Part shown: in pieces, positions 6,326 to 21,455 of the stretch
Position numbering within the stretch: position 1 is the stretch's first letter
How the letters are laid out: each line of letters opens with the position of its first letter
Assembly: GCA_964474375.1 (NCBI GenBank)
Contig: CAYYSG010000001.1
Span: forward strand, 18,559 to 82,558
Origin: an uncultured Candidatus Saccharibacteria bacterium
GTDB taxonomy: Bacteria; Patescibacteriota; Minisyncoccia; Phycocordibacterales; UBA9973
Direction: 5' to 3'
Length of the DNA: 64,000 nucleotides
The notes under the pieces: model-generated
What the model was told of the DNA's origin: nothing
Databases searched by the model: none
Seen by the model: the letters and a program-made list of their open reading frames with translations, nothing else
Translations under genes and position numbers: made by a program

Positions 6326-7414
6326 TTACTTTTTAGCGCACCCTGTCCATCCATATATGGAAAAATGTCTACCGGTAACCCAGCTGTATGTTCCGGCGCC
6401 TAGTCCTAGGTCTTTTGCTTTTTTGACCATTGCATCACCTGTTTGTCCTTCAAAGACAGTACACAGTTTAGATTTATTCGCTGATTGGTCTATATAAGTC
6501 AGGACATCGATATCGTTATACAAGTTACTATCAGTAAAAGCAAAGTCAACACATCTTCCAGTTTTGTGGCATGAGTTTTTGTGTTTTACGCTTTGAGGCA
6601 TTGCCTCGGTTATTCTATAGTTTCCTTTTATTTTAGAATTTTGGTCTAGTAGTTTTTTAAAAGCAGCCAGTCTTTCAGCTAGTTCTTTCGAAGCGTATTT
6701 GCCATTTTTTGTTTCCCATCCAGATATTGTTAAGTCGCTACAGTCCCCTGTAACTTTTTCATTAGGTTCTCCTTGGCAGGTATCCTTTACGCTTGTGGCT
6801 TTGTCGTAATTAAAGTCTTTTATGATATTTCCATCTTCACCATATGTAAAACTAACAACTGGCCAGGTTCTGGTATTTATTAAATTCCCCCCTATTCTTA
6901 TCTTCACTAAATCAGGATTAATAGTATAAAGTATCAAATAAGCACAAAACATGAGTATAAGTCCTGCTATTGCTGTAGTTATTTTACTTCTACTATCACT
7001 TTTCTTCCATACGGTATCTGACCCCATATACTGCACTCCATAAACCATGATCATGACTACAGTAATAGCACCTGCCATAGCTATAGCTAGCCTTATTATA
7101 AAGTTTACAAAGTCAGAGAAGCCGCCTGTCTCACCTTCTTCTTTTTCTTTGTCTGTTAGTTCTCTACAGCCACGGATACTACCATCAGCGTTGTATTCTG
7201 GTTTACCCGTATCACAAATCTTATCTATATTGCCTATTTTGTTTATTAGTTTGTATGAATCAGGTTTAAAATTTACATTATTTGTGTTTGTGGTGGCTTT
7301 GAGAGTTGTACTAGTATCAACATAGCTATTAGTTAGTACAGGAGTTTGAGCTACGGCTGCACTGCTTAGAATAAATCCCCAAAATAAAATAAAAATAAAT
7401 ACTTTATTCTTCAT
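6326..7414 (-). CDS. Fusion protein: signal peptide plus VirB2/TrbC-pilin-like two-helix membrane module, then a Cys-rich LAS/M15-type peptidase-like domain
   Basis: N-terminus carries a signal peptide and two hydrophobic helices (FVNFIIRLAIAMAGAITVVMIMVYGV; ITTAIAGLILMFCAYLILYTI). C-terminus has SCHKTGRCVDFA (SxHxxGxxxD, LAS metallopeptidase-like) and a later GRHFSIYGW His. Confidence 0.4.
   Translation of the reverse strand: MKNKVFIFILFWGFILSSAAVAQTPVLTNSYVDTSTTLKATTNTNNVNFKPDSYKLINKIGNIDKICDTGKPEYNADGSIRGCRELTDKEKEEGETGGFSDFVNFIIRLAIAMAGAITVVMIMVYGVQYMGSDTVWKKSDSRSKITTAIAGLILMFCAYLILYTINPDLVKIRIGGNLINTRTWPVVSFTYGEDGNIIKDFNYDKATSVKDTCQGEPNEKVTGDCSDLTISGWETKNGKYASKELAERLAAFKKLLDQNSKIKGNYRITEAMPQSVKHKNSCHKTGRCVDFAFTDSNLYNDIDVLTYIDQSANKSKLCTVFEGQTGDAMVKKAKDLGLGAGTYSWVTGRHFSIYGWTGCAKK
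6891..7123 (-). repeat. 233-bp direct repeat copy A (100 percent identical to 9403..9635)
   Basis: Read base by base: identical from cctattcttatcttcactaaatcagg to aagtcagagaagcc. Lies inside the pilin-like module coding region of 6326..7414. Confidence 0.85.
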
Positions 7415-8654
7415 AAGACCACAAGCTCATATTTTTTTTATTTATAAAGCTAATCAAATTACCGGAATTATTTATAGATGTTTTCCATACATCAATAGGA
7501 TTTTGGGCATCAGATGATATTTGGGACATTTCGCGAGCATTTAAATTCATAGTGGTATAACGAACGATTCCGTCATTTGTTTCTATTTCCCCGCTGTACC
7601 ATGCATCAGGATACAACACATTGTCGAAAGACTTTGGCACTGCACAAGTAAAAATAGTTTCATCAGAACTCCATGAACATTTTTCAACTAGACCCATTTT
7701 GCCTAACTGGCGCATTGTGCCATCTTTTAAATTATATGTAGACATAACCGGACCAGATTGCTCGGTCACTGCCCGCAGGATATAGTTTCCATCAGGTGAG
7801 ACTTTTGTGGTTAGGCCATTTAAATTCCCCCAGATTTTAGTTAGTTTTTTATTTTTTAGATCCAGGGTATAGGCAAACCCAGGTGCTAATTCTGTAGCTT
7901 TTGTTGTTAACAGTAGTTTTTCTTTGTTTATAAATTTAACGTGCCATTCACTAATAGGTGAAGAATAAACCAGCTCATCTTTAGCTGATTTTTCCATAAA
8001 TATACTAGAGCCATTTTGGTTTTTGCTAATGTATATAAATTCTCCGTCTTTAGCAAAGTCAAAAGAGATTATGTTGTCCGGCAATATTTTTACAGAATCC
8101 CTCCCTAGTGTTCCTAAGACTGATTTTTCTGTTATCATATCGGCATCTAAATATCTAAACAAAACCCTATTTCCATCTGGTGAAAAGTCAGCAAACAAAA
8201 CCCTAGGCAATGCCGTGTCGGATATTAAATAACTATTACTGTATTTAGGAATATAGTCATAAATATAACCATTTTCTCGGGATACATATCTAATAGCATC
8301 TATTTGGTCATATATTTTATTACCTTTTGCGTCGACGCCAGTTTCGCCGGCTATTTCGTCGTCTCTTCTTACTATAATAGAACCAGCTACGTTTTCAGCA
8401 ATGAGTTCTGGGTATCCAGTTGTATTTACTGCACTATCCCCCTCATCACCTCCACCAGGCAGTATGTCTCTTATAATGTCACCAATAGTACTGCCATCAT
8501 TATTACCAAAAGGTAAAAAATCTTTAGCTGTTATTTCAGTTATTTGGCCACTGTCTAGTTGTTTTTTTAGTGAGTTATTACGAATAACCATAAAACCAGC
8601 CATTCCTATTATTAGAATAACTAAAATTATTCGTATTAGTCTGCCTTTGTGCAT
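7404..8654 (-). CDS. Membrane-anchored beta-propeller protein (TolB/PD40-like repeats)
   Basis: N-terminal TM anchor (IRIILVILIIGMAGFMVI) and repeated SPDGNRVLF / SPDGNYIL PD40-like motifs. Confidence 0.5.
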   Translation of the reverse strand: MHKGRLIRIILVILIIGMAGFMVIRNNSLKKQLDSGQITEITAKDFLPFGNNDGSTIGDIIRDILPGGGDEGDSAVNTTGYPELIAENVAGSIIVRRDDEIAGETGVDAKGNKIYDQIDAIRYVSRENGYIYDYIPKYSNSYLISDTALPRVLFADFSPDGNRVLFRYLDADMITEKSVLGTLGRDSVKILPDNIISFDFAKDGEFIYISKNQNGSSIFMEKSAKDELVYSSPISEWHVKFINKEKLLLTTKATELAPGFAYTLDLKNKKLTKIWGNLNGLTTKVSPDGNYILRAVTEQSGPVMSTYNLKDGTMRQLGKMGLVEKCSWSSDETIFTCAVPKSFDNVLYPDAWYSGEIETNDGIVRYTTMNLNAREMSQISSDAQNPIDVWKTSINNSGNLISFINKKNMSLWSYEE

Positions 8655-8696
8655 AAAATTATTATAACATAGAGATGTCGTAATAATTAGTGTTAA

Positions 8697-9824
8697 TTAT
8701 TTGTCTTGCAAGACACAGGCATCGTATAGATTCTTACGGTTTCTTGATTCGGTTTTTGCAAAGTCACTAGCTGGTTTACAGCTACCTCCGCCATATGCTC
8801 GAAATGTATTTTCTATATCACCCTTACATTTTTCAAAATTATATTGCAGTAGCTCTGCTCCAGCTTTTATGGCTTTGGTTGCATCGTACATATCTTTTGG
8901 ACAGACCGTGGTTTTTGTTTTTGCTGTTAGTCTGCATCTAGGTTTGCCATCTTCTGGAAAAAATGTAAATTGCATAATCCCTACCCCATGAGAAAATCTC
9001 CAGTCTAGTCCTAAATCATCACGACTTGGATTACTGGCGGTGAATATACCGCCCGTTCCATGGTCATCATTTAAAAAACTAGAGTTAGTTCCTAATAGGT
9101 TATTGTTTGGGTTAAATGTAACGCCTTTGTATGTTTTACCTGATGCAATGAATTGCCTTCTGGCTGGTACGCTTTTAGGAATAGGTGCATTTTCATCGTG
9201 CCCTATTACGCTAGGGTTACCTCGGGATTCACGGAGAGCCACCACCTGCAACATGCAGTGATGTATACCATAAGATGGAGCAATGGATTTAATTTGGTTA
9301 TAATAAGCAGTCCTAGCGAATGTCGTTGTTACCTCTCTTTCTAGTCTGTATTGGCTGGCTGGGTTCCATTCGGACCATGTATTTTCTTCTATTTTGTTTC
9401 CTCCTATTCTTATCTTCACTAAATCAGGATTAATAGTATAAAGTATCAAATAAGCACAAAACATGAGTATAAGTCCTGCTATTGCTGTAGTTATTTTACT
9501 TCTACTATCACTTTTCTTCCATACGGTATCTGACCCCATATACTGCACTCCATAAACCATGATCATGACTACAGTAATAGCACCTGCCATAGCTATAGCT
9601 AGCCTTATTATAAAGTTTACAAAGTCAGAGAAGCCATTAGGGCTGACATCTTGCACTTCTTTTATATTACCTATTTCGTTTATTAGTTTGTATGACCCAG
9701 GCTTAAAATTTGCATTGTTTGTGTTTGTGGTGGCTTTGGGTAGGTTATCCGATTTTACTATTGTTGGGTAAACAAATCCTGTGGCAAAAATCAGAACCAG
9801 TATAAAAAGTGTTTTCTTTAACAT
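8697..9824 (-). CDS. Fusion protein: VirB2/TrbC-pilin-like two-helix module plus lytic-transglycosylase-like (VirB1-like) domain
   Basis: N-terminal ~130 aa are nearly identical to those of 6326..7414. C-terminal domain has LRESRGNP ... GVGIMQFT ... RAYGGG, resembling the SLT motifs ES / GLMQ / AYNxG but with a long insertion. Confidence 0.45.
   Translation of the reverse strand: MLKKTLFILVLIFATGFVYPTIVKSDNLPKATTNTNNANFKPGSYKLINEIGNIKEVQDVSPNGFSDFVNFIIRLAIAMAGAITVVMIMVYGVQYMGSDTVWKKSDSRSKITTAIAGLILMFCAYLILYTINPDLVKIRIGGNKIEENTWSEWNPASQYRLEREVTTTFARTAYYNQIKSIAPSYGIHHCMLQVVALRESRGNPSVIGHDENAPIPKSVPARRQFIASGKTYKGVTFNPNNNLLGTNSSFLNDDHGTGGIFTASNPSRDDLGLDWRFSHGVGIMQFTFFPEDGKPRCRLTAKTKTTVCPKDMYDATKAIKAGAELLQYNFEKCKGDIENTFRAYGGGSCKPASDFAKTESRNRKNLYDACVLQDK
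9403..9635 (-). repeat. 233-bp direct repeat copy B
   Basis: Identical to 6891..7123. Lies inside 8697..9824. The flanks are only ~85 percent similar. Confidence 0.85.
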
Positions 9825-9827
9825 AAG

Positions 9828-10775
9828 TTAAAAATTAAGCTCCAATGCAGATTTGAATTCTTGGTATAGTGATCGAGGATTATCGTAATTTAGATTCAGG
9901 CGAACAACTCCACTGTCATCGGGCCGAATAAACGAAATCAGTTCTGGAATTTTTTGGTTATTTACATCTTCCCCACTAAGGTTCCAGACAATATTTGGAT
10001 TCAGTGTTTTATTTATACCCAAAGGAACACCAAAAACTGAAATAGTATTGTCATACCCAGCAACTTCATTTTTTATAGTGGTCCCTAGATTAAGTCCAAC
10101 CAAAGGACTGTATTCGTAGAATAATATTTTGTTTCTAGTAAAAGGTATACTAATAGAAGAAGTTTTGGTTTCAGAATTGGGTTTTATTACAGATACTGTT
10201 ATGTTTTCGGATCTTTCTATTTCTGTGTTTTTAAAATCAACAAAATTATTAGCACTGCTAGATTTCGTTTGGAGTGATTTGCCATTTCTTGCCCAAGAAT
10301 ATGAAACTTGTCCCCCACTAGGGTTCAGGACAGCTACGCGCAAATCATTTTCTCTTATTGGTATACGCTTACCCATGTAAAAAGGAATACTTTTACTATT
10401 CATTGCTTCCCAGATTAAGTCATAAGACATAGATGAAAAAGTTATATTTTTAGTAACCTTAGACCCACCAACTAGTGTTATTTCAGCATCAATGTTATTT
10501 TGTGCTCCTGGAGTATTACTTGATTCTATTGTAAATTCTTTTTCACCATAGCCAGATTTAGTCACACTGCCGTATGACCATTTAATATAAGCTAAATCTA
10601 AGTTTGTTTCGTAGCTTGTTAGTGTTGCTGTTACCTCCTCGCCTTCTCTTGGATCTACTGGATTAATACTGATGGATATATTAGGTTCAGATTCAAAAGT
10701 ACCCTGCGCCAGAGCACTGCCAGTTATAATAAATATAAATAATGCTATACCTAACAGGTATTTTTTCATATACAT
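9828..10775 (-). CDS. Secreted hypothetical protein within the T4SS-like cluster
   Basis: Signal peptide MYMKKYLLGIALFIFIITGSALAQ. No recognisable motifs. Confidence 0.5.
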   Translation of the reverse strand: MYMKKYLLGIALFIFIITGSALAQGTFESEPNISISINPVDPREGEEVTATLTSYETNLDLAYIKWSYGSVTKSGYGEKEFTIESSNTPGAQNNIDAEITLVGGSKVTKNITFSSMSYDLIWEAMNSKSIPFYMGKRIPIRENDLRVAVLNPSGGQVSYSWARNGKSLQTKSSSANNFVDFKNTEIERSENITVSVIKPNSETKTSSISIPFTRNKILFYEYSPLVGLNLGTTIKNEVAGYDNTISVFGVPLGINKTLNPNIVWNLSGEDVNNQKIPELISFIRPDDSGVVRLNLNYDNPRSLYQEFKSALELNF

Positions 10776-10786
10776 ATTATAGCATA

Positions 10787-12649
10787 CTAGTTTTGCTGTG
10801 CTTTATTTTTTTCAGCTTGAATAGCCAGAACTTGAGCTGGGTCAGATGTGATTATTTGTTCCTCTGTATAAGACGAAACTATTTTGATGGCTACGTGTTT
10901 TAGTCCTGCGAAAAATATCCCTTCCCCTACGTTGGCTTCTAGTAGTGTGTATTTTTCCGCATCGGTTAGATTAAATGCATCTTTTAGGACATCAATAGTC
11001 GTTGGGGACTGTTTTAGAAGCAGTTGCATTGAAGAGTTAGTTAAAATAGGTCTACCATATGGTGATTTTAGGAAGTCCTCCACGTCTTGTGTAATTGTAG
11101 CTAATCCAAGGTAATATTTACGTCCACGTTTTGCAATACTGTATAGGAAACTAGCTGTGTCTTCGTTTTTCATCATCCACCAAGCTTCATCCACTACCAT
11201 TAGTCTCTTTTTTAGATTCTTACGGATTTCATTCCATATGAAATGAGTAATTATATACATTGCTACAGGTTTTAATTCATCTTCCATATCACGTATTGAA
11301 AACACAACGAACTTCCGGTTTATGTCGACGTTACTTGGTTTGTTTAAGAATCCTGACCATGAGCCGGTTGTGAACTTTTCTAGCTTTGTAAGTACTGAAG
11401 AAGTTCCGTCCATACCAGCTAACACAACTGCAAAGTCGGACAATAGTGGTGGTTCAATAGTACTAAAGTCTGAATCAACGGTAATGTCCTTTAGGGCATA
11501 AGTCTCGGTGATTGCACGGTCGATAATAGCGTCTTCTTCGGGAGTTAGCCCACCCAGCATTACGCGAAATAGCCCCACTAGATTGATTGTATTTTGGCGG
11601 AGTACGTCTGCATTTGTTTCGTCTTTACTTGGGATCGGTAAATCAAAAGGATTTATATGGTGGTCAGATGATAGTGATACATTAAAATATCGCCCCCCTA
11701 CTGCGTCGGACAGGTATTCGTATTCTTTTTCCGGGTCGATAACTATAACATCAGTATCGAACATGAGTGAACGCAGAATTTCTAGTTTGGTTGCGAAAGA
11801 TTTACCAGAACCTGATTTTGCAAATGTTACAGAGTTATAGTTTTCCAATGAAAATCGGTCAAAAATAATAAGTGAATTATTATGCTGATTGATTCCATAT
11901 AAAATTCCTTTGTTGCCTGTTAGGTCAAACGAAACAAAAGGAAAAGTACTGGACAATGGTTCTGTGTTCATTTTTTGCATTACACGCAAATTGTCTTTTG
12001 CCATCGGGATGCTGGACAGGAATGCCGTGTCTTGCTGAAAAGTCGCTGGTTTGATGAATATCATTTGTGAATCCAGCTGACCTTTTATTTCGTTCTCGGC
12101 CTTGAATAGATCGGATTCATTTTCGGCATATATGTTGATATATAGTCCTACTTCGAACATTTTTTCTTGTGCTTGCTGCAAAGAATCGCGCAGTTGCTCT
12201 AAATCTCTATATGCTGATTCTAACATTGGGTCACGAACCATACCCTTGCTCTCTCTTTCGGATATTTGACTTTGGACTTCAGCTACCTTTTTCTGGAATT
12301 GGGACATTATTTTACCAGTATCTACTGGGGTTATGTTTATGGAAATATCGAAAACCCTGTCCAAGTTTATTATAGGTGTTAGCCAGTTGTCAGTTAGTAT
12401 ACTAGGATATCCTACAATATAGAATGAACGTACTATCATGTCCCCTAGATTAAGAGCAGTAGGCATTATCTGCAGTGCTGATGGGGCTATAATGTCTTGT
12501 AGTTCGAGCTGAGCTGAACTAAAGATTTCTTCTGGTCTAACAGACAAAGAACCAAGAACACTAGATGATTCTTTTTTGTTTCCGCCACCAAATATTTTTG
12601 AAAATATAGACATATTATTGGTTACTTTGCTTAGGGATATGACCAGCAC
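10787..12649 (-). CDS. virB4: VirB4/TrbE/TraC-family conjugation-type ATPase, C-terminal ATPase portion
   Basis: Walker A FAKSGSGKSFATK. ..HHINPFDL, Walker B LMVVDEAWWMM, and RGRKYYLGLATITQ. Overlaps the upstream partner ORF by 35 nt. Confidence 0.7.
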   Translation of the reverse strand: MLVISLSKVTNNMSIFSKIFGGGNKKESSSVLGSLSVRPEEIFSSAQLELQDIIAPSALQIMPTALNLGDMIVRSFYIVGYPSILTDNWLTPIINLDRVFDISINITPVDTGKIMSQFQKKVAEVQSQISERESKGMVRDPMLESAYRDLEQLRDSLQQAQEKMFEVGLYINIYAENESDLFKAENEIKGQLDSQMIFIKPATFQQDTAFLSSIPMAKDNLRVMQKMNTEPLSSTFPFVSFDLTGNKGILYGINQHNNSLIIFDRFSLENYNSVTFAKSGSGKSFATKLEILRSLMFDTDVIVIDPEKEYEYLSDAVGGRYFNVSLSSDHHINPFDLPIPSKDETNADVLRQNTINLVGLFRVMLGGLTPEEDAIIDRAITETYALKDITVDSDFSTIEPPLLSDFAVVLAGMDGTSSVLTKLEKFTTGSWSGFLNKPSNVDINRKFVVFSIRDMEDELKPVAMYIITHFIWNEIRKNLKKRLMVVDEAWWMMKNEDTASFLYSIAKRGRKYYLGLATITQDVEDFLKSPYGRPILTNSSMQLLLKQSPTTIDVLKDAFNLTDAEKYTLLEANVGEGIFFAGLKHVAIKIVSSYTEEQIITSDPAQVLAIQAEKNKAQQN

Positions 12650-13262
12650 TGTCCCCTGGGTTAAATGTTTTGTAATAAAGCTCGATCAAGCCTTCGGTGT
12701 TTAAGGGTACTGACCGTACTCCACAGCGGCCCAGAGTTTGCATTACGATACCTAGTCTTTGTTCTAGCTGGTTTCTTTTTTCATTCCAGTCTACTTCTTC
12801 TTCGGATTCTATTTTTTTTAAGCCCCCAACAGACCCAAAAAATTTTGAGAAAAATCCCCCAGTACGTATTAATGACTGACTATATGGTACAACTATATAA
12901 AAATGTTTTGACATTATGTTTACCCTGCTAGTTAGTTCACGAATAAATTCGATATATTCTCTGGTTTGGAATTTGAGCAAAGGCTCGTCTATTTTGTCGA
13001 GTCTTTCTTCTAGTGTTAGTAGGTATGGTCTAATATCGAATTTTCTGGACTGGACGACTATTTGAGTATCAAAATCGAGCGAATTTAATAGTGATTGGAA
13101 TTGTAATATTATAGACTTTTGTTCGTCTTGTGAGCGCAAAGTAAAGTTAATAGCGGTACACAGTAGTACAGCTCTTAGTCCACCATCATTAAGTTCCACC
13201 ACCCCGTCACGGATGTGTTTTATCGGTACAAATGACTGACTGCTTGGTGCTTTGATTGACAT
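12615..13262 (-). CDS. VirB4-family N-terminal domain, encoded separately in a different frame
   Basis: PIKHIRDGVVELNDGGLRAVLLCTAINFTLRSQDEQKSII resembles the VirB4 N-terminal region. Together the two ORFs total 835 aa, close to a typical VirB4 (~800 aa). Confidence 0.5.
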   Translation of the reverse strand: MSIKAPSSQSFVPIKHIRDGVVELNDGGLRAVLLCTAINFTLRSQDEQKSIILQFQSLLNSLDFDTQIVVQSRKFDIRPYLLTLEERLDKIDEPLLKFQTREYIEFIRELTSRVNIMSKHFYIVVPYSQSLIRTGGFFSKFFGSVGGLKKIESEEEVDWNEKRNQLEQRLGIVMQTLGRCGVRSVPLNTEGLIELYYKTFNPGDSAGHIPKQSNQ

Positions 13263-13263
13263 A

Positions 13264-13692
13264 TTATTTTACTGATTGACCGCTAGATTGGTCTCGGTCC
13301 ATTACGTCTAGACTCCATGCCAATGCTTCTATCTTACCACGGTCTAGGTTTTTCGGTGTAGTTAGGACAGGCTTTTTTGTGGCTATTCCTTTGTTATCCA
13401 TGTCTTTTTTGTGTTCAGGTCTTTGCCAGACATACATACGGTTTTTTGTGTAGTGTGTTAAAAATGCTTGGAACATTAGAATAGCTGGACGAGAATTCGG
13501 CTTCCAGAATGAAAGACTAATAGCTAAGAATAAAAATAAAGCTATAAGTATAAAACCAAAAGTAAAACCCAGATATGTATATGTTACATAAGCCAGGCCA
13601 ACTCCCCCACCTAGATAAATAAATTGCTTAAAAGTCAAAGGCCCAATGACTTTGTCTTCTATGTCTAAAAATCTTGGCATTTGGAATTGCAT
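13264..13692 (-). CDS. VirB3/PrgI-like small membrane protein
   Basis: 142 aa. IEDKVIGPLTFKQFIYLGGGVGLAYVTY then a TM helix, matching the VirB3/PrgI-type pattern (..GLT.rQ...), and located immediately upstream of virB4. Confidence 0.45.
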   Translation of the reverse strand: MQFQMPRFLDIEDKVIGPLTFKQFIYLGGGVGLAYVTYTYLGFTFGFILIALFLFLAISLSFWKPNSRPAILMFQAFLTHYTKNRMYVWQRPEHKKDMDNKGIATKKPVLTTPKNLDRGKIEALAWSLDVMDRDQSSGQSVK

Positions 13693-14408: not shown

Positions 14409-17400
14409 TTATGCTTTAGGTGGTTGGTATTTGTCAGTTGTGTCGACCTTTGTGTCTTTGTCTTGCCAGCTTCTACCATAGTTTTCATAGAATTTTCTGT
14501 CATACTCTGCCATTCTTACTAGCCCTGTAGCTATTGCTGTTGGTGCTGCTACCCAGCCGAATGGAGCACCTAGTACTGATCCTTTTGCTACGTCGGTATG
14601 TAAGAATGAATCATTGAGTACTGCACCTAATTTGCTTCTTGTTCCTGACGGGCTACTTTTTAGTTGATATGTCATGTTTTCTATATCACGAGCTGCTTCG
14701 GCTACATCTTTCAGAGCCTTGTCTTTTGCTTCACCTTCCATGGAATCTATATCGATTGAATTATAGACTGCCTCGTAAATTCTATTTTTAGCATGTTTAT
14801 TGAGAATCTCGGTGTCTTTTTTATACTTTTTAATGATCTCTTTCTTTTTGTCTTCGTCGGCTCCTGCCCATTCTTTGTCAGTTTTTGCTTTGTTTTCAAC
14901 TTCATTCATTATTTCCATAATGTCAGACCTTTTTGCCATTTTCTCGTCGGTCTCTGCTTCTTCTAGGTCTTTTCCAATTTTTTCTTTATATACGTCAAGA
15001 CCAGTTTTACGTTGGAATATTTTACCAGATTTTTCTCTTTGGAATTGCTTATATCTATCTGCTCTGTCAGTTTTAACTTTTTCCATTGCTTCTTCTGCAC
15101 CTTTTATTCCGATTACATGCATAGCTTTACCTGTTTTTTCATCTACGTATGTATAGCCATCACCTTTTAAGGCATTTAGCTTGTCTTTCTCTATTTTAAT
15201 TTCTTTTCTAATTTCTTTTTCTGCGTTTCCTAGTTTTGTGGCTTCTTTGTTTGCGTCTGTTTGGCCGTCTTCGTGTTTCCTTATTTCTTCTTTTAAGGCG
15301 TTCTTATCTTCTTCCAGTTTAGCTTTTTGACCTTCAAGTAAGACTTTTTTAGCAGTATCTGTCTCAGCGTCTATTTCTTTTTGTTTTTCTTTAATAAGAT
15401 TTTCTTGTTCGTTGACTTTTCTTGTTTTTGTTGATATTTCAGCTGCGTGGTCTCTGGCTACTTGTTGGTAAGAACGCATTTCAGAGAATTTTTCATCAGC
15501 ACGTTCTTTTAGGTCATTAACTATGTCTTCTTGGTTATTTGCTGCACGTTCTGTTTTTTTCTTAACATCTTCCATTTTGTTGTACATTTCTTGGTCGAAC
15601 CCTAGAGAGTCTTCAAACTTTTTAATTCTCTCTGTTTTTCTTTGCATCTGTGCCATGTATCCCCCAGCAGTTGTAGCTGTTTGGAATTGTTTACCAAAGA
15701 AAGGTATATAGTTTGTACCAGCTTGCATATTAACCCCTGTGAATCCTGATACTGCGCTGGCAGCTTTGTTTTGACGTAAATCAAAGCTACCTTTACGTGT
15801 CATATCGAGTGCTCCTACTTTTAGTCTTGCCCATGTGTTGCCTTCGGCTGCTTTTGTCATTAGTTTTTCTCCTGCGGTACTTTGCATATAACGACTAGCT
15901 CTTTTACCTAGTGCATTTCTACCAGCCCAGGCTGCGCCACCTGTAGCTATTGCTGCACCAAATCCAGCTACGCCAGACGCTACTGCTACTAATTTATCCC
16001 CTGCTAGTTTAGCAATGCTCGAAGTCAGGCCTTCTGTCATAGATTTTATTAAATATAAGAATCCAATTATCAGCATAAAAGGTATGATCAAACTCATCCA
16101 CCATTCTATACCCACAACTCCGTCGCCAAATACCGCTTTAAAAGGATTGTTCTTTACAAATAGTACTAGTATCATCATTAAAACTAGGAATATTGGAGCC
16201 TTGAATGCATCTTTTAATAGTCCTTGCATCCATTCTTCAAAACCAACCATTTTTAGACCACTTCTTTGTCCTGATGATAACGACAATGAAAACACTGCTA
16301 AGGGTGAAAGTATAATTGCAAATATAAGCCCTATAATACGGTATATGAACTGCAAAGCTATTTTTAGGAATATCAGCATTGCTATGACGTTAAATATCAC
16401 ACCCATTAGGAGTATCATGAAGACCGTTCCTTTGTTTTCGTCTACTTTGAATGTAGCAGCGTTGTCATCAAGTCCATCTAAGATGATTTTTTGGGGGTCG
16501 TAACCTTCGGCGGCAGTAGATGAAAGACTAATAGCTTTACCATCTGCCCCGTCGGTACGACTAAACACGTTGTAGTATAGTTGGCGCGCAGTAATGTTCG
16601 ATATATCTATAACTATTGTTGTTAGCGGGAATGAAAAGTTAATAACCGTAGCCACTATCAGAGTGTTAACTATTAGTTGCTTAGTACCCTGCCCTATGTT
16701 TAAAACTAGTTTGAATGCTAAATATAGCAACATAAATATAAAGAACAAGTTACATACATCACGAATGAATCTCCAGCCGTCTTTTATATACTGTGCATTG
16801 TATGAATCTGGCTGGATACTATAAGCCAAAACAAAGTCCATGATGCTACCCGCTACACCCAGTAAGAATGCTGTTGGTACAAAAACCATATAGTAAAACC
16901 CAACAACAAGACATCCAGTAAACCAAGTGCCAATGTCTTTCGCATCACATTTAGGCATCCAAGCCGGACCACTACCAGCACTATTGCCTGAGCTTATAAG
17001 GACTGCCCCACCTCTGGATGTTTGTGTTATTTGATCTGGTATTGATACCGAAACAACAGGAGTATATCCATTGTCGTCAAACCAAGGGTCGTGTTCGTTA
17101 GCAAAAAGTCTAAAATAATAAGTTTTGTTTTTTTCAACTTGTAGTGGTTCTAGTCCAAAAACCATACCAGTTTTTGCATCGCTTATGATAGGTGAATCTA
17201 CTTTTTCACCGAATATATACGGGTTTAAGTTTATCTCTTTTACGTCATTACCTCCTACTTTTGGATCAGTGTTACTAGTTGAATATAAAAGATAAAATCC
17301 ATATCCACCCTCATTTGCTGTTCGGGTATCTATTTCTGGGTTATTAAAGCCTTTTGTAAAATTATCCCAGTCACCTCCTGGAATGTCTCCAGGAGATGCT

Positions 17401-18662
17401 TTGCGATTATTATCTACATCATTCCATGCAATAAAATCTGTACTATCTGGCTTGTCTATAAGCATAGCAATATCAATGTCTAAAACAGGCTGACTACCCG
17501 ACATTGCTGGTTCGAGTTTTTTAATTGAATAGTCTTCCATTACGTAATTTGCATTTGCAAATTTGTATTGAATATTTTGTTTAGTGCTTGTGTTTAACAA
17601 GGTCCATGTTACTTGAGTTCCAGAATTTGCATTTGGGTCAAAAGCCATTTGAGCTTTTGCGCTAGACCATTCTGTTGATAGCTGGTAGGATCCATCTGTT
17701 TTAGGTTCTGGGTCTGTTGTTTGTATCAATTCAGATCTAGACAATGTATACAGAGTTCGGTCGCTATTATCTTGAAAGTAATTTACTTTAAAACTCCCCT
17801 TTTTTTGTTTAGGTATGTCTGCACTCAAATGAAGGATGTTTTTATTTGTCTTACCTTCTACTTTTAATGTTCCAACCATATTCTGGGTTACATCAAAACT
17901 AGAATAGTCTTTTTCTCTAAATTGGCCCCATTCAACATCAAAACTATTACCAGTTCCTTTTTGTGCTTTTATAAAAACAACATGATCTTTTATGTTTTTA
18001 TAAATAGTTGTACCGATAACTGTATCAGCTAATTCTTCAACCGCATTTTTATCAGAAGTCTTTTCTGTCCGGATAGTCTTTACTCCTTGCCTGTCTTCTG
18101 TTGTATATGTAAATTTATAATGCCCCCACTCATCAAAACCACCATTATCCTCAATACATTTTTTAAAAAAAGTAGAAGGTATTGAAAATGTAAAATCTTG
18201 TTTTAAATACCCCCTTGCTTCGGTGTTCGCTAGATTTAGGCTGGCAATAGATGTTTTGTCGGGGCTTGTAAGACTAGGGTTAGATACGAGCGTTACATTA
18301 CTAGCAGAACAACCTGTTTCTATATCTCCTGGAACAAATCCATCTCTTATTTCGTATTCAATTTTATCAATAGAATTTATTCTATGGTTAGGGTCAGTAA
18401 AAGCTGAAACTTTTATATTAGTTCCATCAGTAATACCTGTGACAATAAGAAAAGCGTCTGCATTTTTAGCATCAACATATTCTCTTTTTTCTACTTTTGG
18501 TGTTTGTGCTGATACTGTATTAGCCCTGACACTGATTTTGTTGTCAGAAAAGTTTATTATGAAAGGTGAAAAAAGCTGGAAGATAACCAGAAAAATAGCT
18601 ATAAATCCAAAAGCTTTTTGCTTCATACTGTATGTATAAATTGTAACATATTTTTTAAACAT
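14409..18662 (-). CDS. Giant polytopic membrane protein, VirB6/TrbL-like core with ~560-aa N-terminal extracytoplasmic region and Gly-rich/coiled-coil Lys-Glu-rich C-terminal tail
   Basis: 1417 aa. N-terminal signal/TM, then a multi-TM block (~570-870, e.g. LFFIFMLLYLAFKLVLNIG, FMILLMGVIFNVIAMLIFL, WWMSLIIPFMLIIGFLYLI). Followed by a Gly-rich segment (GVAGFGAAIATGGAAWAG) and a long K/E-rich coiled-coil. Confidence 0.4.
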   Translation of the reverse strand: MFKKYVTIYTYSMKQKAFGFIAIFLVIFQLFSPFIINFSDNKISVRANTVSAQTPKVEKREYVDAKNADAFLIVTGITDGTNIKVSAFTDPNHRINSIDKIEYEIRDGFVPGDIETGCSASNVTLVSNPSLTSPDKTSIASLNLANTEARGYLKQDFTFSIPSTFFKKCIEDNGGFDEWGHYKFTYTTEDRQGVKTIRTEKTSDKNAVEELADTVIGTTIYKNIKDHVVFIKAQKGTGNSFDVEWGQFREKDYSSFDVTQNMVGTLKVEGKTNKNILHLSADIPKQKKGSFKVNYFQDNSDRTLYTLSRSELIQTTDPEPKTDGSYQLSTEWSSAKAQMAFDPNANSGTQVTWTLLNTSTKQNIQYKFANANYVMEDYSIKKLEPAMSGSQPVLDIDIAMLIDKPDSTDFIAWNDVDNNRKASPGDIPGGDWDNFTKGFNNPEIDTRTANEGGYGFYLLYSTSNTDPKVGGNDVKEINLNPYIFGEKVDSPIISDAKTGMVFGLEPLQVEKNKTYYFRLFANEHDPWFDDNGYTPVVSVSIPDQITQTSRGGAVLISSGNSAGSGPAWMPKCDAKDIGTWFTGCLVVGFYYMVFVPTAFLLGVAGSIMDFVLAYSIQPDSYNAQYIKDGWRFIRDVCNLFFIFMLLYLAFKLVLNIGQGTKQLIVNTLIVATVINFSFPLTTIVIDISNITARQLYYNVFSRTDGADGKAISLSSTAAEGYDPQKIILDGLDDNAATFKVDENKGTVFMILLMGVIFNVIAMLIFLKIALQFIYRIIGLIFAIILSPLAVFSLSLSSGQRSGLKMVGFEEWMQGLLKDAFKAPIFLVLMMILVLFVKNNPFKAVFGDGVVGIEWWMSLIIPFMLIIGFLYLIKSMTEGLTSSIAKLAGDKLVAVASGVAGFGAAIATGGAAWAGRNALGKRASRYMQSTAGEKLMTKAAEGNTWARLKVGALDMTRKGSFDLRQNKAASAVSGFTGVNMQAGTNYIPFFGKQFQTATTAGGYMAQMQRKTERIKKFEDSLGFDQEMYNKMEDVKKKTERAANNQEDIVNDLKERADEKFSEMRSYQQVARDHAAEISTKTRKVNEQENLIKEKQKEIDAETDTAKKVLLEGQKAKLEEDKNALKEEIRKHEDGQTDANKEATKLGNAEKEIRKEIKIEKDKLNALKGDGYTYVDEKTGKAMHVIGIKGAEEAMEKVKTDRADRYKQFQREKSGKIFQRKTGLDVYKEKIGKDLEEAETDEKMAKRSDIMEIMNEVENKAKTDKEWAGADEDKKKEIIKKYKKDTEILNKHAKNRIYEAVYNSIDIDSMEGEAKDKALKDVAEAARDIENMTYQLKSSPSGTRSKLGAVLNDSFLHTDVAKGSVLGAPFGWVAAPTAIATGLVRMAEYDRKFYENYGRSWQDKDTKVDTTDKYQPPKA

Positions 18663-18690: not shown

Positions 18691-19545
18691 TTATTTACAA
18701 ATAGTTTCTTTGGCTTTGTGTATTATACATTCTATCGTGCCGTTTTGTATCGTGGTTATGGTTTTTATGTTGTACTTGTTTAGCACATTTAGTACTTCGA
18801 TGTGTGGGTGACCATAGCGGTTATTCTCCCCTGCGGAAATCAGTGCGTATTTGGGCGTGGTTAGCATGATTAGTCTTTCGCCGGTCGATGTGTTGGATCC
18901 ATGGTGTCCAACTTTTAATATGTCTATGTTGTTTAAGTATTTGCCATACTTTTTCAAGACCTCATCTTCTACTTCTTTTGGGGCGTCACCTGTTAGCAGT
19001 ATCTTTTTGCCTTCGTATTCTATCAGTCCTACCATTGAACCCGAATTCCTTTCCCAGTCAGCTACATTGCCTTCGGGCCAAAGAACTGTATAAGTCACGC
19101 CATGATTTTTGTCCAGAACCACTACATCCCCGCTTTTAGGCTTATAAATGTTGATTTTTTGCTCTTGGGCTAGTTTTTCTATTTCAGTATAGGCGCTGAT
19201 GGTGTGATTGGTGCCGGGGCTTAGTATTTGCCCTATTTTGTATTTTTCCATTACAAAAGGAAATCCTCCTATATGGTCCAAATCTGGGTTGGAAACCTCG
19301 ATGATGTCTATTGTCTCACCGGTATTTATATATTTGCCTAGCTCACTTAGCACGCTCCTGTCGCGGCCTGAATCTATCAGCATTTTCCTGCCGCCGGGGG
19401 TTTCTATTAGTGTTGCGTCGCCCTGGCCTATGTTTAGCATATATAGGCTCAAGCTATTTTCTTCAGGTTTTTGCCTAGTTAGTAGAAAAATAAGTATAAA
19501 AAAGACTAAAATTGTAATTATCCAGTAAATATTCCGTCTTTTCAT
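18691..19545 (-). CDS. ComEC C-terminal metallo-beta-lactamase-fold domain protein, encoded as a separate gene with its own TM anchor
   Basis: LNIGQGDATLIE, DHIGG, and KVGHHGSNTSTG are motifs of the ComEC/Rec2 MBL domain. The ORF is open to 19605, and the start is more likely Met at 19545 (MKRRNIYWIITILVFF). Confidence 0.7.
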   Translation of the reverse strand: MKRRNIYWIITILVFFILIFLLTRQKPEENSLSLYMLNIGQGDATLIETPGGRKMLIDSGRDRSVLSELGKYINTGETIDIIEVSNPDLDHIGGFPFVMEKYKIGQILSPGTNHTISAYTEIEKLAQEQKINIYKPKSGDVVVLDKNHGVTYTVLWPEGNVADWERNSGSMVGLIEYEGKKILLTGDAPKEVEDEVLKKYGKYLNNIDILKVGHHGSNTSTGERLIMLTTPKYALISAGENNRYGHPHIEVLNVLNKYNIKTITTIQNGTIECIIHKAKETICK

Positions 19546-19578
19546 GTATAAATTATAACATTTTGCTATAATACTCCT

Positions 19579-20184
19579 ATGATAGAAAAATACACTGCAA
19601 AACAATATGATTTGCCAGAACTAACTGGTATTTCCAAAAAAAGTATAGAAGAACATATGAAACTATACGAAGGCTATGTTAAACACGCCAACCTAATAAA
19701 AGAAAAGCTAGAATCAATCCCCGCGGACGATGCCTATACTCGCACCGAACTCATGCGACGGTTTTCTTTCGAGTTCTGTGGTATGCGTAATCACGAGCTT
19801 TATTTTTGGTCTCTTGTTGGTGGGGCTAGTACTATTCCAAATGGTTCAAAGTTAGAATCAGACATCATTCGTGATTTTGGTAGCATAGATGATTTTTTTA
19901 TAAAATTAAAAGAAATAGCTTTGACTCGGTCCGTTGGTTGGGCAATGTTGTCCTACGATGTAACATTCGACCACTTGACTTTGTCTTGGGTGGATGAACA
20001 GCATATAGGGCAACTCATGAACGTGTTCCCTGTTTATGCTATCGATATGTGGGAACATGCTTATGTTTACGACTATCAGCCTAGTGGTAAAAAGAATTAT
20101 CTTGAAGACTATATCAAAAATACAAATTTCGAATCTTTATCTAACCGCTACGAAGTTTTTTGCAGTAGCTTAAAACCTTTGTAA
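19579..20184 (+). CDS. sodA: Fe/Mn superoxide dismutase family protein
   Basis: NHELYFWS and AIDMWEHAYVYDY match the SOD metal-ligand motifs NHxxFW and DxWEHAYY. The N-terminal HH..HH motif is partly degenerate. Confidence 0.7.
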   Translation: MIEKYTAKQYDLPELTGISKKSIEEHMKLYEGYVKHANLIKEKLESIPADDAYTRTELMRRFSFEFCGMRNHELYFWSLVGGASTIPNGSKLESDIIRDFGSIDDFFIKLKEIALTRSVGWAMLSYDVTFDHLTLSWVDEQHIGQLMNVFPVYAIDMWEHAYVYDYQPSGKKNYLEDYIKNTNFESLSNRYEVFCSSLKPL

Positions 20185-21455
20185 AATAAAAATACATAAA
20201 TAGTCAGTACAATAACCAAAGGAAAATTTTCCACATAGTAGGCAGACCAAGTTGTCTCGCCTATTTTGTTTATTATATATATCATCAGGTTTGAAATATT
20301 TTCCGTAACAAAAGCCGGAATGAATCTGAGGAATTCAGGTGTGATACCTAGCACAAATCCAAACAGCATTAACACTGGTATCATTGGAACTATTATAATG
20401 TTAGCTATAATTCCAAGTGACGAAATTATGCCTATAGAATAAGCAATATATGGCAAAGTCATAATGCTAGCTGAAATAGTGCTACTCAATGTTTCGGACA
20501 AAAATTTGCCAAATCTTTTTTTAACAAAATATCCAGCGACTGTGCCCTGGTATGCTATTAGTCCAAAAGTTGCCAGTACTGAAAGATGAAAACCCACATC
20601 ATAGCGTAAAGACAAAGGTGAAATCAGTATCAGCAAGGAGGTTGCTAAAAATAAAGCATACAGGTTATTGTATTCTAGCCCTCTGGCTCGTGCATAAATC
20701 AAGACGAGCGACATTATGCTGGCTCTGACTGCGCTACTGGCTCCGCCAGCTAATACCAAAAAAGCCAATATACCAAGCGACCCAAACAAACTACGAACCA
20801 GTATACTAAACGAAGACAGTATCTTCATAATAGTTTCACTAACTATGGTCATGTTGTATCCAGAAAGCGCAATTATATGGCTAGTGCTCGATCGTGACAA
20901 ATTCAGCCTAAATTCATTTGTCATGTCAGACTTCTCCCCTAATAATATCCCGCGTGTTAACGAAGCGCTATTATAACTAAGTGACGCATTTATTTTATTT
21001 GCAAAACCAGTGCGTATTTTAAAAAGAAAACTTTTTATTTTGTTGGCTTGGTTTATACCCAGTACTTCTATTGTGGGTTCGCGGACTATGCCATATATTT
21101 TAGATAGTTTTAAATAATTATCATAATCAAATGTTTTACCTGAGTCGGTAATAAAGTCTTTTGGTTTTTCTATTGTGCTAGTTATTTTTAGCTCATCGCC
21201 ATAATGGTATTCAGTATAAGGTTCAGTTACTATTAGTAACCTGCTGTTATCATTCACATTTATTTCGTTTATGGATTTTATTTTTATTCTGTATCTATTT
21301 GAACTAATTCTTTTTTCTGGGTAATCATCCACTACTCCTATTATTGTAAATTCTTCGTCACCAAAATTAATTTCAATTTCTTCTTTTACAAAACAAAAAT
21401 ACATTCCGTATATTATAGGTATTATGACTATAATAATTCGGAATGTATTTTTCAT
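20148..21455 (-). CDS. comEC: ComEC/Rec2 competence channel (membrane domain only)
   Basis: Polytopic protein whose region LAFLVLAGGASSAVRASIMSLVLIYARARG is typical of the ComEC competence domain, with a DUF4131-like N-terminal part. Confidence 0.7.
   Translation of the reverse strand: MKNTFRIIIVIIPIIYGMYFCFVKEEIEINFGDEEFTIIGVVDDYPEKRISSNRYRIKIKSINEINVNDNSRLLIVTEPYTEYHYGDELKITSTIEKPKDFITDSGKTFDYDNYLKLSKIYGIVREPTIEVLGINQANKIKSFLFKIRTGFANKINASLSYNSASLTRGILLGEKSDMTNEFRLNLSRSSTSHIIALSGYNMTIVSETIMKILSSFSILVRSLFGSLGILAFLVLAGGASSAVRASIMSLVLIYARARGLEYNNLYALFLATSLLILISPLSLRYDVGFHLSVLATFGLIAYQGTVAGYFVKKRFGKFLSETLSSTISASIMTLPYIAYSIGIISSLGIIANIIIVPMIPVLMLFGFVLGITPEFLRFIPAFVTENISNLMIYIINKIGETTWSAYYVENFPLVIVLTIYVFLFYKGFKLLQKTS

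Follow-up and report, generated by a model that had tools for sequence, protein, structure and literature searches.

The DNA analysed here (the window) is a 64-kb stretch from an uncultured Candidatus Saccharibacteria bacterium, an ultrasmall organism of the Patescibacteria type, and it was compared with 23 related loci. Two genes on its minus strand, both present where the first-pass annotation had placed them, join a pilin-like module to a predicted cell-wall hydrolase. The product of orfA (6326..7414, 362 aa) consists of a signal peptide, an N-terminal segment with a Cys-loop insert, a VirB2-like hairpin, a linker and a Hedgehog/DD-peptidase-like (LAS) domain. The product of orfB (8697..9824, 375 aa) begins with a signal peptide, an N-terminal segment and the same hairpin, and ends, after a linker, in a predicted SLT-type lytic transglycosylase.

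The type IV secretion locus

orfA and orfB belong to one operon, lie directly downstream of genes for PrgI, TrsD and VirB4, and are adjoined by dnaA. The co-directional string of genes, all on the minus strand, runs from a 1417-aa polytopic membrane protein at the operon head (14409..18662) through PrgI, TrsD and VirB4 to orfA, with -35 to +42 nt between neighbouring genes. The PrgI/VirB3-like protein (13264..13692; PF12666, E 1e-7) is followed by a TrsD-like protein (12615..13262; NF045975, E 2.6e-10; NF041427, weak), which is the equivalent of the VirB4 N-terminal region and is a separate ORF in related loci too. Next comes the P-loop part of a VirB4-type ATPase (10787..12649; PF19044, E 1.1e-27; PF03135). 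The 1417-aa protein gave no match in profile searches; by its position it is a candidate VirB6 analogue, comparable to SEML1_0011/0013 (PMC10633639 Table S2). The fusions stand among VirB4, VirB3/PrgI and candidate VirB6-type genes, the T4SS context expected of pilins.

Two further conserved proteins are encoded on the same strand. A 315-aa secreted protein (9828..10775) lies between VirB4 and orfB. A 416-aa protein (7404..8654), with a TM segment at its N-terminus and a weak match to PD40/beta-propeller repeats, lies between orfB and orfA, shares 11 nt with the start of orfA, and has orthologues at about 12 of the 23 loci (L001-L004, L006, L007, L009-L013). A convergent jag gene is found 8 nt past the end of orfA. 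The gene order of the locus is kept in at least 12 species-level genomes, and the position of the fusions directly 3' of VirB4 is kept across divergent genomes. The locus type, a T4SS next to dnaA, has already been published for Patescibacteria (PMC12102498, PMC10633639).

Domain composition of the two fusions

The first-pass annotation had described a common N-terminal part followed by full divergence, and the alignments agree. BLASTP joins the first ~185 residues of orfA and ~150 of orfB at 61% identity (E = 6e-67) and finds no significant similarity between the two past that point. The common elements are a signal peptide, an ATTNTNN(V/A)NFKP..YKLIN.IGNI segment, and two hydrophobic helices ending in NPDLVKIRIGG. 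Only orfA carries the Cys-loop insert, 25 residues long relative to orfB, and among paralogues of different genomes the insert has a mosaic spread. AF2 places helices at residues 2-23, 99-130 and 138-165 of orfA and at 2-18, 65-97 and 101-131 of orfB; hydropathy concurs (hydrophobic helices of orfA, aa 101-130 and 143-167). In both models the two-helix hairpin (pLDDT >90) is followed by a low-confidence linker and then by a confident catalytic domain. A signal peptide and a hydrophobic two-helix hairpin with a short loop, as expected of a pilin, are therefore found in both proteins, while their total lengths depart from the usual pilin size.

The hairpin core, GFSDF...NPDLVKIRIGG (minus strand; aa 98-176 of orfA, 6887..7123; aa 64-142 of orfB, 9399..9635), lies inside a 246-nt direct repeat whose copies (6878-7123 and 9390-9635) are 98% identical. 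Over the 237 nt of the core the identity is 99.2% in DNA and 100% in protein, both differences being synonymous, and the flanking DNA is divergent.

Taken alone, the module does not reach the PF18895 gathering score (orfA 16.2 bits, E 0.011; orfB 15.0 bits, E 0.027; cutoff 26.6), and the close homologues P0003-P0008 score just under it, at 24-26 bits. A profile of the module (A2) retrieved 477 proteins. The best 120 of these are mostly annotated as PF18895, are at most 222 aa long and have E values of about 1e-27 to 1e-20; some of them are named 'pilin [Patescibacteria]'. In the orfA family, PF18895 is matched by 71 of 78 sequences (best E 2.9e-13) and TrbC/VirB2 (PF04956) by 10. When the profile of this family (A4) was run against the PDB, the first non-Hedgehog match was VirB2 of Agrobacterium tumefaciens (8cue, E 0.053), in the pilin part. 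Despite the sub-threshold direct Pfam scores, these profile searches support the assignment of the two-helix module to the Patescibacteria T4SS pilin family (PF18895, VirB2/TrbC-like), and the earlier proposal of a pilin-like N-terminal module is upheld.

The C-terminal domains had been read as SLT-like in orfB and LAS/M15/Hedgehog-like in orfA, and the motifs quoted for them (LRES, GVGIMQ and RAYGGG; SCHKTGRCVDFA and GRHF) are all in place. The orfB domain (aa ~165-375; 8700..9332, minus strand) matches PF01464 at 32.5 bits (E 6.9e-8; gathering cutoff 21.3) over profile positions 38-115. All of 43 sequences have E199, and at least 90% of them have S200. These two residues are the catalytic Glu-Ser within LRES, and an AF2 helix (189-200) ends at them. 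An insert of ~75 aa, bearing GHDEN and DLGLDWRFSHG, precedes the GxMQ motif. The top Foldseek matches are all lytic transglycosylase- or lysozyme-like (MltE, Slt70, Slt, MltC, MltD, LtgA, goose-type lysozyme), the best with a probability of 0.97-0.98 though an E value of just 0.16-0.2. Profile score, conserved motif and fold matches together support an SLT-type lytic transglycosylase with an intact catalytic Glu-Ser, for which muralytic activity is predicted.

The orfA domain (aa ~210-358; 6341..6787, minus strand) matches Hedgehog-N, VanX and VanY by fold and profile, and its top 35 Foldseek matches are all Hedgehog N-domains. Across the 78 sequences of A4 there is no variation at E270, H278, C282, H283, C288, D290 or E322, and H350 is at least 90% conserved (96% in an alignment of 118 domains). 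The putative Zn ligands are H283, D290 and H350, the H-x6-D plus distal His arrangement of LAS peptidases. E322 is the putative catalytic residue, H278 probably belongs to the same site, and Cys pairs are conserved at 213/225 and 282/288. A sequence profile of the family matches Shh (E ~1e-3), and the zinc motifs coincide in the alignment: H283-x6-D290, E322 and H278 fall on zinc/catalytic residues of Shh, and H283/D290 correspond to Shh H141/D148. The classical H-x-H motif of DD-peptidases was not found in the orfA family, whose consensus is H-F-S-V-Y. Its single His may be the second His of Shh HCSV, a tentative equivalence since the HMMER alignment ends before that motif. PF01085, PF02557, PF01427, PF08291 and PF13539 gave no match to orfA at E up to 5, and none to any of the 78 sequences of its family at E up to 0.01; the lone PF01085 match among close homologues is that of P0007 (E 0.038). 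The evidence from fold and profile supports a Hedgehog/DD-peptidase (LAS, M15-like) zinc-peptidase fold lying outside the Pfam models, with predicted peptidase activity, in line with the earlier reading.

With the Hh/DD-peptidase family (Shh N-domain, bacterial Hedgehog-like proteins, M15 VanX/VanY; PMC6027127) orfA has the H-x6-D zinc motif in common, and the VTEa..H....H..G..vD and vYE motifs of its family align with Shh. It differs in having no PF01085/M15 Pfam match, H-F-S rather than H-x-H as the last motif, and extra Cys pairs. The classical bacterial Hedgehog proteins that were retrieved (Pararhizobium, Bacillus plasmids; PF01085 E ~1e-50) are without a pilin module. The sub-threshold PF18895 scores, H-F-S in place of H-x-H and the ~75-aa insert of orfB count against reading the pair as dedicated T4SS hydrolases.

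Recurrence and concerted evolution

The fusion recurs. A scan of 68 proteins (59 new SLT-type matches plus nine module-bearing proteins) found pilin module and SLT-like domain combined in 53. Among 119 Hedgehog-like family representatives, a first profile finds the module in 100 and a broader one in at least 104. The Hedgehog-like and SLT-like subfamilies of orfA and orfB occur almost only together with the pilin module. Genomes differ in the peptide-cutting partner encoded at the syntenic position (Hedgehog-like, VanY, NlpC/P60, or an unknown type with HxxxD/HxH-like motifs) but not in the glycan-cutting SLT partner, a pattern that fits a constant glycan backbone and a variable peptide chemistry.

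The two hairpins of one genome evolve in concert in six genomes. In each of the four closest genomes they are 99-100% identical in DNA, compared with 65-82% between those genomes, and at two further loci the within-locus nucleotide identity is 90-100%. At more distant loci homogenisation is absent (40-69% aa identity within the locus), and hairpin identity is therefore no general requirement. Repeats that lie near each other may also undergo gene conversion in the absence of selection.

The published VirB2-like pilins of Patescibacteria (PF18895; SEML1_0014-0019 of Southlakia epibionticum; PMC10633639, PMC12102498) belong to the same family, down to the ...YxILYTINPDLV motif, and are encoded at the same type of locus, with PrgI, TrsD, VirB4, a large polytopic protein and adjacent dnaA. 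They are, however, short (~100-185 aa) and stand-alone, whereas here each of two modules carries an enzyme domain of ~200 aa. Members of the published arrays also differ widely from each other (25% identity on average, 54% at most; PMC12102498), in contrast to the identical protein sequence of the orfA and orfB modules.

A proposed role in breaching the cell wall

We favour, as somewhat the more probable interpretation, that orfA and orfB are the dedicated cell-wall hydrolases (VirB1 function) of this Patescibacteria-type T4SS, targeted to it via the VirB2 hairpin. The VirB1 function would be split, with orfB cutting glycan as an SLT lytic transglycosylase and orfA cutting peptides as a Hedgehog/DD-peptidase-type zinc peptidase. 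The signal peptide would take both proteins through Sec, and the two helices would enter the membrane as a hairpin whose short K/R-containing loop faces the cytoplasm, leaving the flexible linker and catalytic domain outside the membrane. Because the hairpin is identical in both, orfA and orfB would reach one VirB2-like docking place, either the VirB4/VirB6-type platform for assembly or a structure formed from that platform, so that glycan strands and peptide stems may be cut at one spot. The target may be the cell's own wall, for passage of the apparatus, or the wall of the host, the cell on which such bacteria live. For PF18895 proteins of Patescibacteria, VirB6 docking and polymerisation are still putative (PMC12857230).

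By analogy, the pair most likely works like the VirB1-type hydrolases of monoderm T4SSs, which are N-terminally membrane-anchored. PrgK (pCF10) and TraG (pIP501) are multidomain enzymes (PMC12102498). Like orfA and orfB, enzymes of this type (PrgK, TraG, TcpG, CD419/TrsG profiles) are encoded inside the T4SS operon and combine a glycan-cleaving SLT/lysozyme-like with a peptide-cleaving activity (PMC12102498). In them both activities share a single chain, anchored simply at its N-terminus, and the peptidase is CHAP, NlpC/P60 or LytM, whereas the fusions are two proteins with a VirB2-family hairpin as anchor and a Hedgehog/DD-peptidase-like peptidase. A further parallel is found in cultured S. 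epibionticum ML1, where SEML1_0006 (two lysozyme-like domains and a Cys proteinase) and SEML1_0007 (Hedgehog/DD-peptidase domain, 951-1105) are essential (PMC10633639 Table S2, PMC12102498). They represent the same two activity classes as orfB and orfA, lie directly downstream of virB4 near the replication origin, and the ECOD class 'Hedgehog/DD-peptidase' of SEML1_0007 is the fold found for orfA. In contrast to the fusions they measure 643 and 1113 aa, no pilin module is stated in the report of them, and separate genes encode the pilins. However, P0212, a relative of 1103 aa, has a weak pilin-like hairpin just before its Hedgehog/DD-peptidase domain, and the difference between SEML1_0007 and the fusions may therefore be smaller than apparent.

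The first-pass annotation held the tethering of hydrolases to a pilin-like membrane module to be undescribed. For the VirB2-family hairpin this stands, as no description of a pilin-hydrolase fusion was found in the searchable literature. Tethering as such is not new, because the monoderm VirB1-type hydrolases are multidomain and membrane-anchored. What appears to be new is tethering through a VirB2-family hairpin; the surrounding T4SS is already published (PMC12102498, PMC10633639).

The identical hairpins could instead co-polymerise into a VirB2-type fibre or stalk, with C-termini outward as in solved conjugative pili and enzymes along the fibre or at its tip drilling the host wall. A pilus has been postulated for Patescibacteria T4SSs (PMC12857230), but none has been seen so far, and we consider such an enzyme-decorated fibre unlikely even though several observations agree with it. 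No short stand-alone pilin ORF was found in the window or within +/-10 kb of the 23 related loci, where all pilin modules sit in large fusions; short pilins may, however, be encoded outside the 64 kb covered. The fusion modules show no degeneration (across the second helix and NPDLV motif they are 40-50% identical to stand-alone pilins), and an exposed C-terminus is suggested by the tails, as long as ~100 residues, that many stand-alone PF18895 pilins have at that end. If the two proteins co-assembled in a single polymer, identical hairpins would be favoured, but the identity is not kept in distant lineages, and a globular domain of 20-25 kDa on every subunit may be sterically hard to accommodate. 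Slightly less probable still is that the fusions are exported or released effectors following the logic of polymorphic toxins. The pilin module would then be a T4SS trafficking or recognition domain, the variable C-terminal hydrolase would be delivered to, or cleaved off onto, the wall of a host or competitor, and the near-identical module DNA would provide homology for swapping C-terminal cassettes. Polymorphic toxins likewise combine a constant N-terminal trafficking module with exchangeable C-domains: at least four C-terminal domain types occur behind the conserved module at the same syntenic position, identity breaks sharply at the module end, the Cys-loop insert is mosaic, and the invariant NPDLV motif leads into a long linker modelled with low confidence. 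The TrbC pilin of RP4 is processed at its C-terminus, but a processing site here is only putative. Moreover, polymorphic toxins have a cognate immunity gene immediately 3', and no candidate is seen here: orfA is followed by the convergent jag, and orfB by the 416-aa protein, kept in 12 related loci whatever the C-domain. A Sec signal peptide with two membrane helices would also be an unusual form for a T4SS substrate.

It is very improbable that orfA and orfB are ordinary membrane-anchored autolysins with a generic anchor, serving the cell's own wall as it grows and divides and lying beside the T4SS incidentally. The direct PF18895 scores are below threshold, in reduced genomes the neighbourhood of oriC often contains housekeeping genes (PMC12102498), and a two-helix hairpin, a low-information fold, may act as a plain membrane anchor. 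Yet the profile searches tie the module specifically to PF18895/TrbC and not to arbitrary membrane proteins, the site 3' of VirB4 is conserved, the catalytic subfamilies hardly occur without the module, and the unfused S. epibionticum counterparts lie within an essential T4SS cluster. The layout of orfA and orfB, probable dedicated hydrolases of the T4SS, recurs widely in public sequence data, and the fusion links the enigmatic "pilins" of Patescibacteria with wall breaching.

The pilin-like module shared by orfA and orfB

Two proteins encoded on the minus strand, orfA (362 aa, 6326-7414) and orfB (375 aa, 8697-9824), were described in the first-pass annotation as a common pilin-like N-terminus fused to two different hydrolase-like domains. 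The common N-terminus is borne out by BLASTP (E = 6e-67 across the N-terminal ~185/150 residues), and the proteins do diverge completely past the module, with no significant similarity beyond this part. The common part consists of a signal peptide, an ATTNTNN(V/A)NFKP.SYKLIN.IGNI segment, and a pair of hydrophobic helices closing with NPDLVKIRIGG. Both helices lie within a direct repeat of 246 nt (6878-7123 and 9390-9635). Over a 237-nt core (GFSDF...NPDLVKIRIGG) the two genes have two synonymous differences, that is, 99.2% nucleotide and 100% amino acid identity. The BLASTP comparison also places a Cys-containing, 25-residue extra loop ahead of the first helix in orfA. The Cys-loop insert (ICDxGxPxYxADGxIxxC..., orfA aa 65-97, approximately 7116-7220) is carried by the peptidase fusion in the window, whereas in a related locus (L002, 5060-6277) it is found in the SLT fusion P0003 and is absent from its peptidase paralogue. 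Such a mosaic pattern suggests that N-terminal segments have recombined.

The pilin-likeness of the module was followed up by a profile search with the module alone (alignment A2), which retrieved 477 proteins. The best 120 of these are no longer than 222 aa and are mostly annotated as PF18895, the Patescibacteria T4SS pilin family (E 5e-27 to 1e-20); some carry the name 'pilin [Patescibacteria group bacterium]'. Close homologues reach 24-26 bits against PF18895, and some match TrbC/VirB2 (PF04956) with E 1e-4. Among orfA relatives, 71 of 78 match PF18895 (best 2.9e-13) and 10 of 78 match TrbC. When the orfA-family profile was run against the PDB, the first non-Hedgehog match was the Agrobacterium T-pilus subunit VirB2 (E 0.053). 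An NCBIfam scan of orfA and orfB gave noise only. By these profile matches, the module is assigned to the PF18895 pilin family, and the proposed pilin similarity holds. Among stand-alone PF18895 pilins, those closest to the module (P0010-P0013) have Cys-rich C-terminal tails of ~100 residues past the NPDLV motif, so that C-terminal additions in PF18895 grade from short tails to whole enzyme domains.

AlphaFold modelling, which had been suggested as a check, gave the same arrangement for both proteins: a signal-peptide helix, a confident helical hairpin (pLDDT >90), and then a low-confidence linker. Hydropathy is consistent with this signal peptide and hairpin. Cleavage of the signal peptide would leave both ends of the hairpin outside the membrane and therefore the C-terminal domains outside too. 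A hairpin with both ends outside the membrane is the topology of VirB2.

Two putative cell-wall hydrolase domains

The C-terminal domain of orfB had been read as SLT-like, and it matches PF01464 at 32.5 bits against a threshold of 21.3. An alignment of 43 orfB relatives shows no variation at the catalytic E199 and hardly any at S200. The orfB model has a mean pLDDT of 84.8, and its best Foldseek hits among PDB structures are lytic transglycosylases throughout (MltE, Slt70, Slt, MltC, MltD, LtgA; best probability 0.98). An unusual insert of ~75 residues (aa ~203-278; window ~8990-9220) lies between the ES and GxMQ motifs. Its stretches GHDEN, NDD, and DLGLDWRFSHG are strongly conserved in the same 43 relatives, and it is mostly modelled with confidence (10-residue block means 82-96). 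The insert could bind a metal or substrate.

The C-terminal domain of orfA is matched by none of the Pfam models. A phmmer search of PDB sequences with this domain alone gave only a spurious nucleoporin match, and a family profile was needed. An exhaustive HMMER search with the domain yielded 119 representatives of 50%-identity clusters, and their alignment gives the consensus W.VTEA.PPT..H...CH..GTCVD ... AVYE ... ITG.HFSVY. Residues E270, H278, C282, H283, C288, D290, and E322 are invariant in the family, and H350 is nearly so. In a model built from the 78-sequence orfA-family alignment (A4), the domain has pLDDT >90, and its top 35 Foldseek matches are all Hedgehog N-terminal domains, in keeping with the LAS/M15-like domain proposed at first reading. 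The family profile also matches Sonic and Indian hedgehog (E ~1e-3), with VTEawPPtvtHkn.sCHqnGtCvD opposite VTEGWDEDGHHSEeSLHYEGRAVD and avYE opposite VYYE. Together, the fold and profile matches identify the orfA domain as a Hedgehog/DD-peptidase (LAS, M15-like) zinc peptidase. From the alignment, the predicted zinc ligands are H283, D290, and H350, and E322 is the putative catalytic Glu; H350 probably corresponds to the second His of the Shh HIH motif, judging from HFSV against HCSV. A degenerate, inactive peptidase, with GRHFS in place of HxH, was considered and rejected, since the entire family has HFS as its consensus and shows no variation at the other catalytic residues.

The classical bacterial Hedgehog proteins that were retrieved, encoded on plasmids of Pararhizobium and Bacillus, do not share the architecture: their PF01085 domains are strong, but the pilin module is lacking. 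Hedgehog forms with three predicted TM segments have been described in Rhizobium and Bradyrhizobium by Roelink (PMC6027127).

Gene neighbourhood, recurrence, and hairpin homogenisation

The gene content of the window includes dnaA, dnaN, rnpA, yidC, and jag, which are directly adjoined by one co-directional gene string. Its order is a 1417-aa polytopic protein, a 223-aa protein, a PrgI/VirB3-like protein (PF12666), a TrsD-like counterpart of the VirB4 N-terminal part, VirB4 ATPase (PF19044, E 1e-27), a 315-aa secreted protein, orfB, a 416-aa protein, and orfA. This string is the Patescibacteria T4SS of Quinonero-Coronel et al. (PMC12102498), which comprises a monoderm MPF-FATA-type VirB4, PrgI, TrsD, VirB6, and VirB2-like pilins and is often located next to dnaA. 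In Southlakia epibionticum, the only cultured species in which this was tested, a system of this type is essential (PMC10633639).

Several features of the region are recorded here as separate observations. The VirB4 function is split over two ORFs (10787-13262, minus strand; 35-nt overlap as called), of which a 215-aa ORF matches the N-terminal region of VirB4/TrsD (NF045975, E 2.6e-10) and is followed by a 620-aa P-loop ORF. The split is kept in the 12 related loci that cover the region (e.g., L001-L003, L006, L010, L012) and is consistent with published work on Patescibacteria, in which TrsD is a component of its own. The 315-aa secreted protein (9828-10775, minus strand) and the 416-aa protein (7404-8654, minus strand), which has an N-terminal TM segment and a weak PD40/beta-propeller signal, are conserved and bracket the pilin-SLT gene in related loci; neither has an informative match in Pfam, NCBIfam, or PDB sequences. 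ComEC is encoded as two separate minus-strand genes (18691-21455), one for the Competence domain (20148-21455) and one for the metallo-beta-lactamase domain (18691-19605), with a Fe/Mn superoxide dismutase gene between them on the opposite strand (19579-20184). The metallo-beta-lactamase gene lies directly ahead of the T4SS operon in the window, L001, and L003. At 29938-31740 (minus strand), a 600-aa protein combines the N-terminal methylation motif of type IV pilins (PF07963) with CarboxypepD_reg-like domains after it; this large protein resembles type IV pilins and has no relation to the T4SS pilin module.

The fusions recur widely. Searching with a profile of the SLT-like domain gave 63 proteins. 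The pilin module and this domain occur in one chain in 53 of 68 proteins scanned (59 new SLT-type matches plus nine module-bearing proteins retrieved earlier); those without the module are mostly short sequences on ~1-2 kb contigs. The Hedgehog-like representatives have the module upstream in 100 of 119 cases with the first profile and in 104 with a broader one, and four more have a borderline hairpin. In 17 members of this family (P0212, P0248, P0192-P0195, and others), N-terminal regions of 200-800 aa precede the hairpin. The fusion proteins are publicly named 'pilin' or 'hypothetical protein'.

A single orfB sequence found no relative among species-representative genome contigs, whereas an alignment-based query recovered 23 loci (L001-L023), all in MAGs, labelled mostly Saccharibacteria, Nomurabacteria, Paceibacteria, Uhrbacteria, or Patescibacteria. 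Module and SLT-like domain share a reading frame in 21 of the 23. L001-L013 show, in whole or in part, the order PrgI, TrsD, VirB4, 315-aa, pilin-SLT, 416-aa, (second pilin fusion), dnaA; VirB4 followed by pilin fusions is also seen in L015, L016, and L018. The C-terminal domain of the second fusion varies: VanY in L001, L003, and L006, NlpC/P60 in L012, an unassigned domain with HxxxD/HxH-like motifs in L002, and further domains without an assignment. The SLT-like domain is also present on six contigs whose MAGs carry the labels Gammaproteobacteria, Planctomycetota, or Myxococcales (L014, L016-L019, L023), and all of these except L019 carry pilin-hydrolase fusions. L016 and L018 have PrgI-TrsD-VirB4 genes as well, with a GC content of 36-38%. 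These contigs are likely mislabelled or mis-binned Patescibacteria, with transfer as a less likely alternative.

Within a genome, the two paralogues have hairpin cores with 99.2-100% DNA identity (window, L001, L002, L003), whereas orthologous cores of these four genomes share 65-82% nucleotide and 62-90% amino acid identity. A slightly longer module shows the same pattern in L006 (90% nt) and L012 (100% nt). The two-gene arrangement is common to these genomes, so the duplication is older than their divergence, and near-identical hairpins within genomes then point to repeated gene conversion. Modules of the distant loci L014-L023 are 40-69% identical within a locus (between-locus median 33%); thus, homogenisation is lineage-specific. 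An assembly artefact was rejected because six MAG contigs, each assembled independently, show the pattern, and their repeats differ in length and have divergent but in-frame flanks. The published Patescibacteria pilin arrays are the opposite case, with members averaging 25% identity and a maximum of 54% (PMC12102498).

Functional interpretation and significance

The best-supported reading is that the orfA/orfB pair fulfils the VirB1 role in this T4SS. The pair would combine a glycan cutter with a peptide cutter, as do the two-domain monoderm T4SS hydrolases PrgK and TraG of pIP501 (PMC12102498), and the VirB2-family hairpin would tether each enzyme, bringing it to the place at which the system handles its VirB2 subunits. 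A constant SLT partner with an exchangeable peptidase partner would fit a constant glycan backbone with variable peptide chemistry. The candidate target is the cell's own wall or that of the host.

Least likely is that the module is a plain anchor on housekeeping autolysins, since its profile links are specific, the position after virB4 is conserved, and both enzyme subfamilies associate near-exclusively with the module. Two other alternatives to a tethered VirB1 function remain, namely that the hydrolase is exported or released as an effector and that the fusions truly co-polymerise into an enzyme-decorated fibre. Short stand-alone pilin ORFs were not detected within the 64-kb window or the +/-10-kb flanks of the 23 loci. 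In its fullest and rather improbable form, co-polymerisation would make the T4SS 'pilus' of this lineage an enzymatic organelle: the hydrolase fusions would be its sole VirB2-like subunits, joined through identical hairpins, and a lytic transglycosylase and an exchangeable peptidase on the fibre surface would cut the wall of the host bacterium for epibiotic connection, the cassette being swapped to suit host peptidoglycan chemistry.

In S. epibionticum, SEML1_0006 and SEML1_0007 lie directly downstream of virB4 (Wang et al., Table S2, PMC10633639). SEML1_0006 has two lysozyme-like domains and a cysteine proteinase; SEML1_0007 (1113 aa) has an ECOD 'Hedgehog/DD-peptidase' domain at 951-1105. 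Both genes came out as essential in that study, and the six short PF18895 pilins (SEML1_0014-0019) have genes of their own (PMC10633639). Thus, the same two wall-cutting classes accompany VirB4 in a distant class, and in the lineage of the window they are fused to the pilin module. A weak pilin-like hairpin stands just ahead of the Hedgehog-like domain of P0212 (1103 aa), a family member that resembles SEML1_0007 in length and in the placing of this domain, so SEML1_0007 may carry one too. Being of the Rosetta-stone type, the fusions give pilins a functional link to the essential lysozyme-like and Hedgehog/DD-peptidase proteins beside Saccharibacteria virB4.

The T4SS type and all three domain superfamilies are already known. 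In line with the original claim of novelty, no fusion of a VirB2-like hairpin to a hydrolase was found in searchable open-access full text, though an earlier description may exist; the breadth of the fusion, the accompanying Hedgehog-like family, and the homogenised hairpins were likewise not found described there. The supplement of PMC12102498 has no mention of SLT, PF01464, or T4SS_pilin co-occurrence.

The role of the T4SS in Saccharibacteria was called "completely unknown" in a 2024 perspective (PMC11665869). Because most Patescibacteria genomes with VirB2-like pilins have no recognisable VirB1, a survey reasoned that VirB2 pilus biogenesis may not need VirB1 (PMC12102498). The fusions bear on this conclusion: for a considerable group of lineages, the hydrolases that seemed to be missing are part of the same polypeptide as the pilin module, hidden behind the annotations "pilin" or "hypothetical protein". 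The architecture also defines a Hedgehog-like peptidase family without an existing model, found almost exclusively with the pilin module. Finally, identical hairpins set against an exchangeable peptidase cassette form a clean evolutionary signal that could help predict host range.
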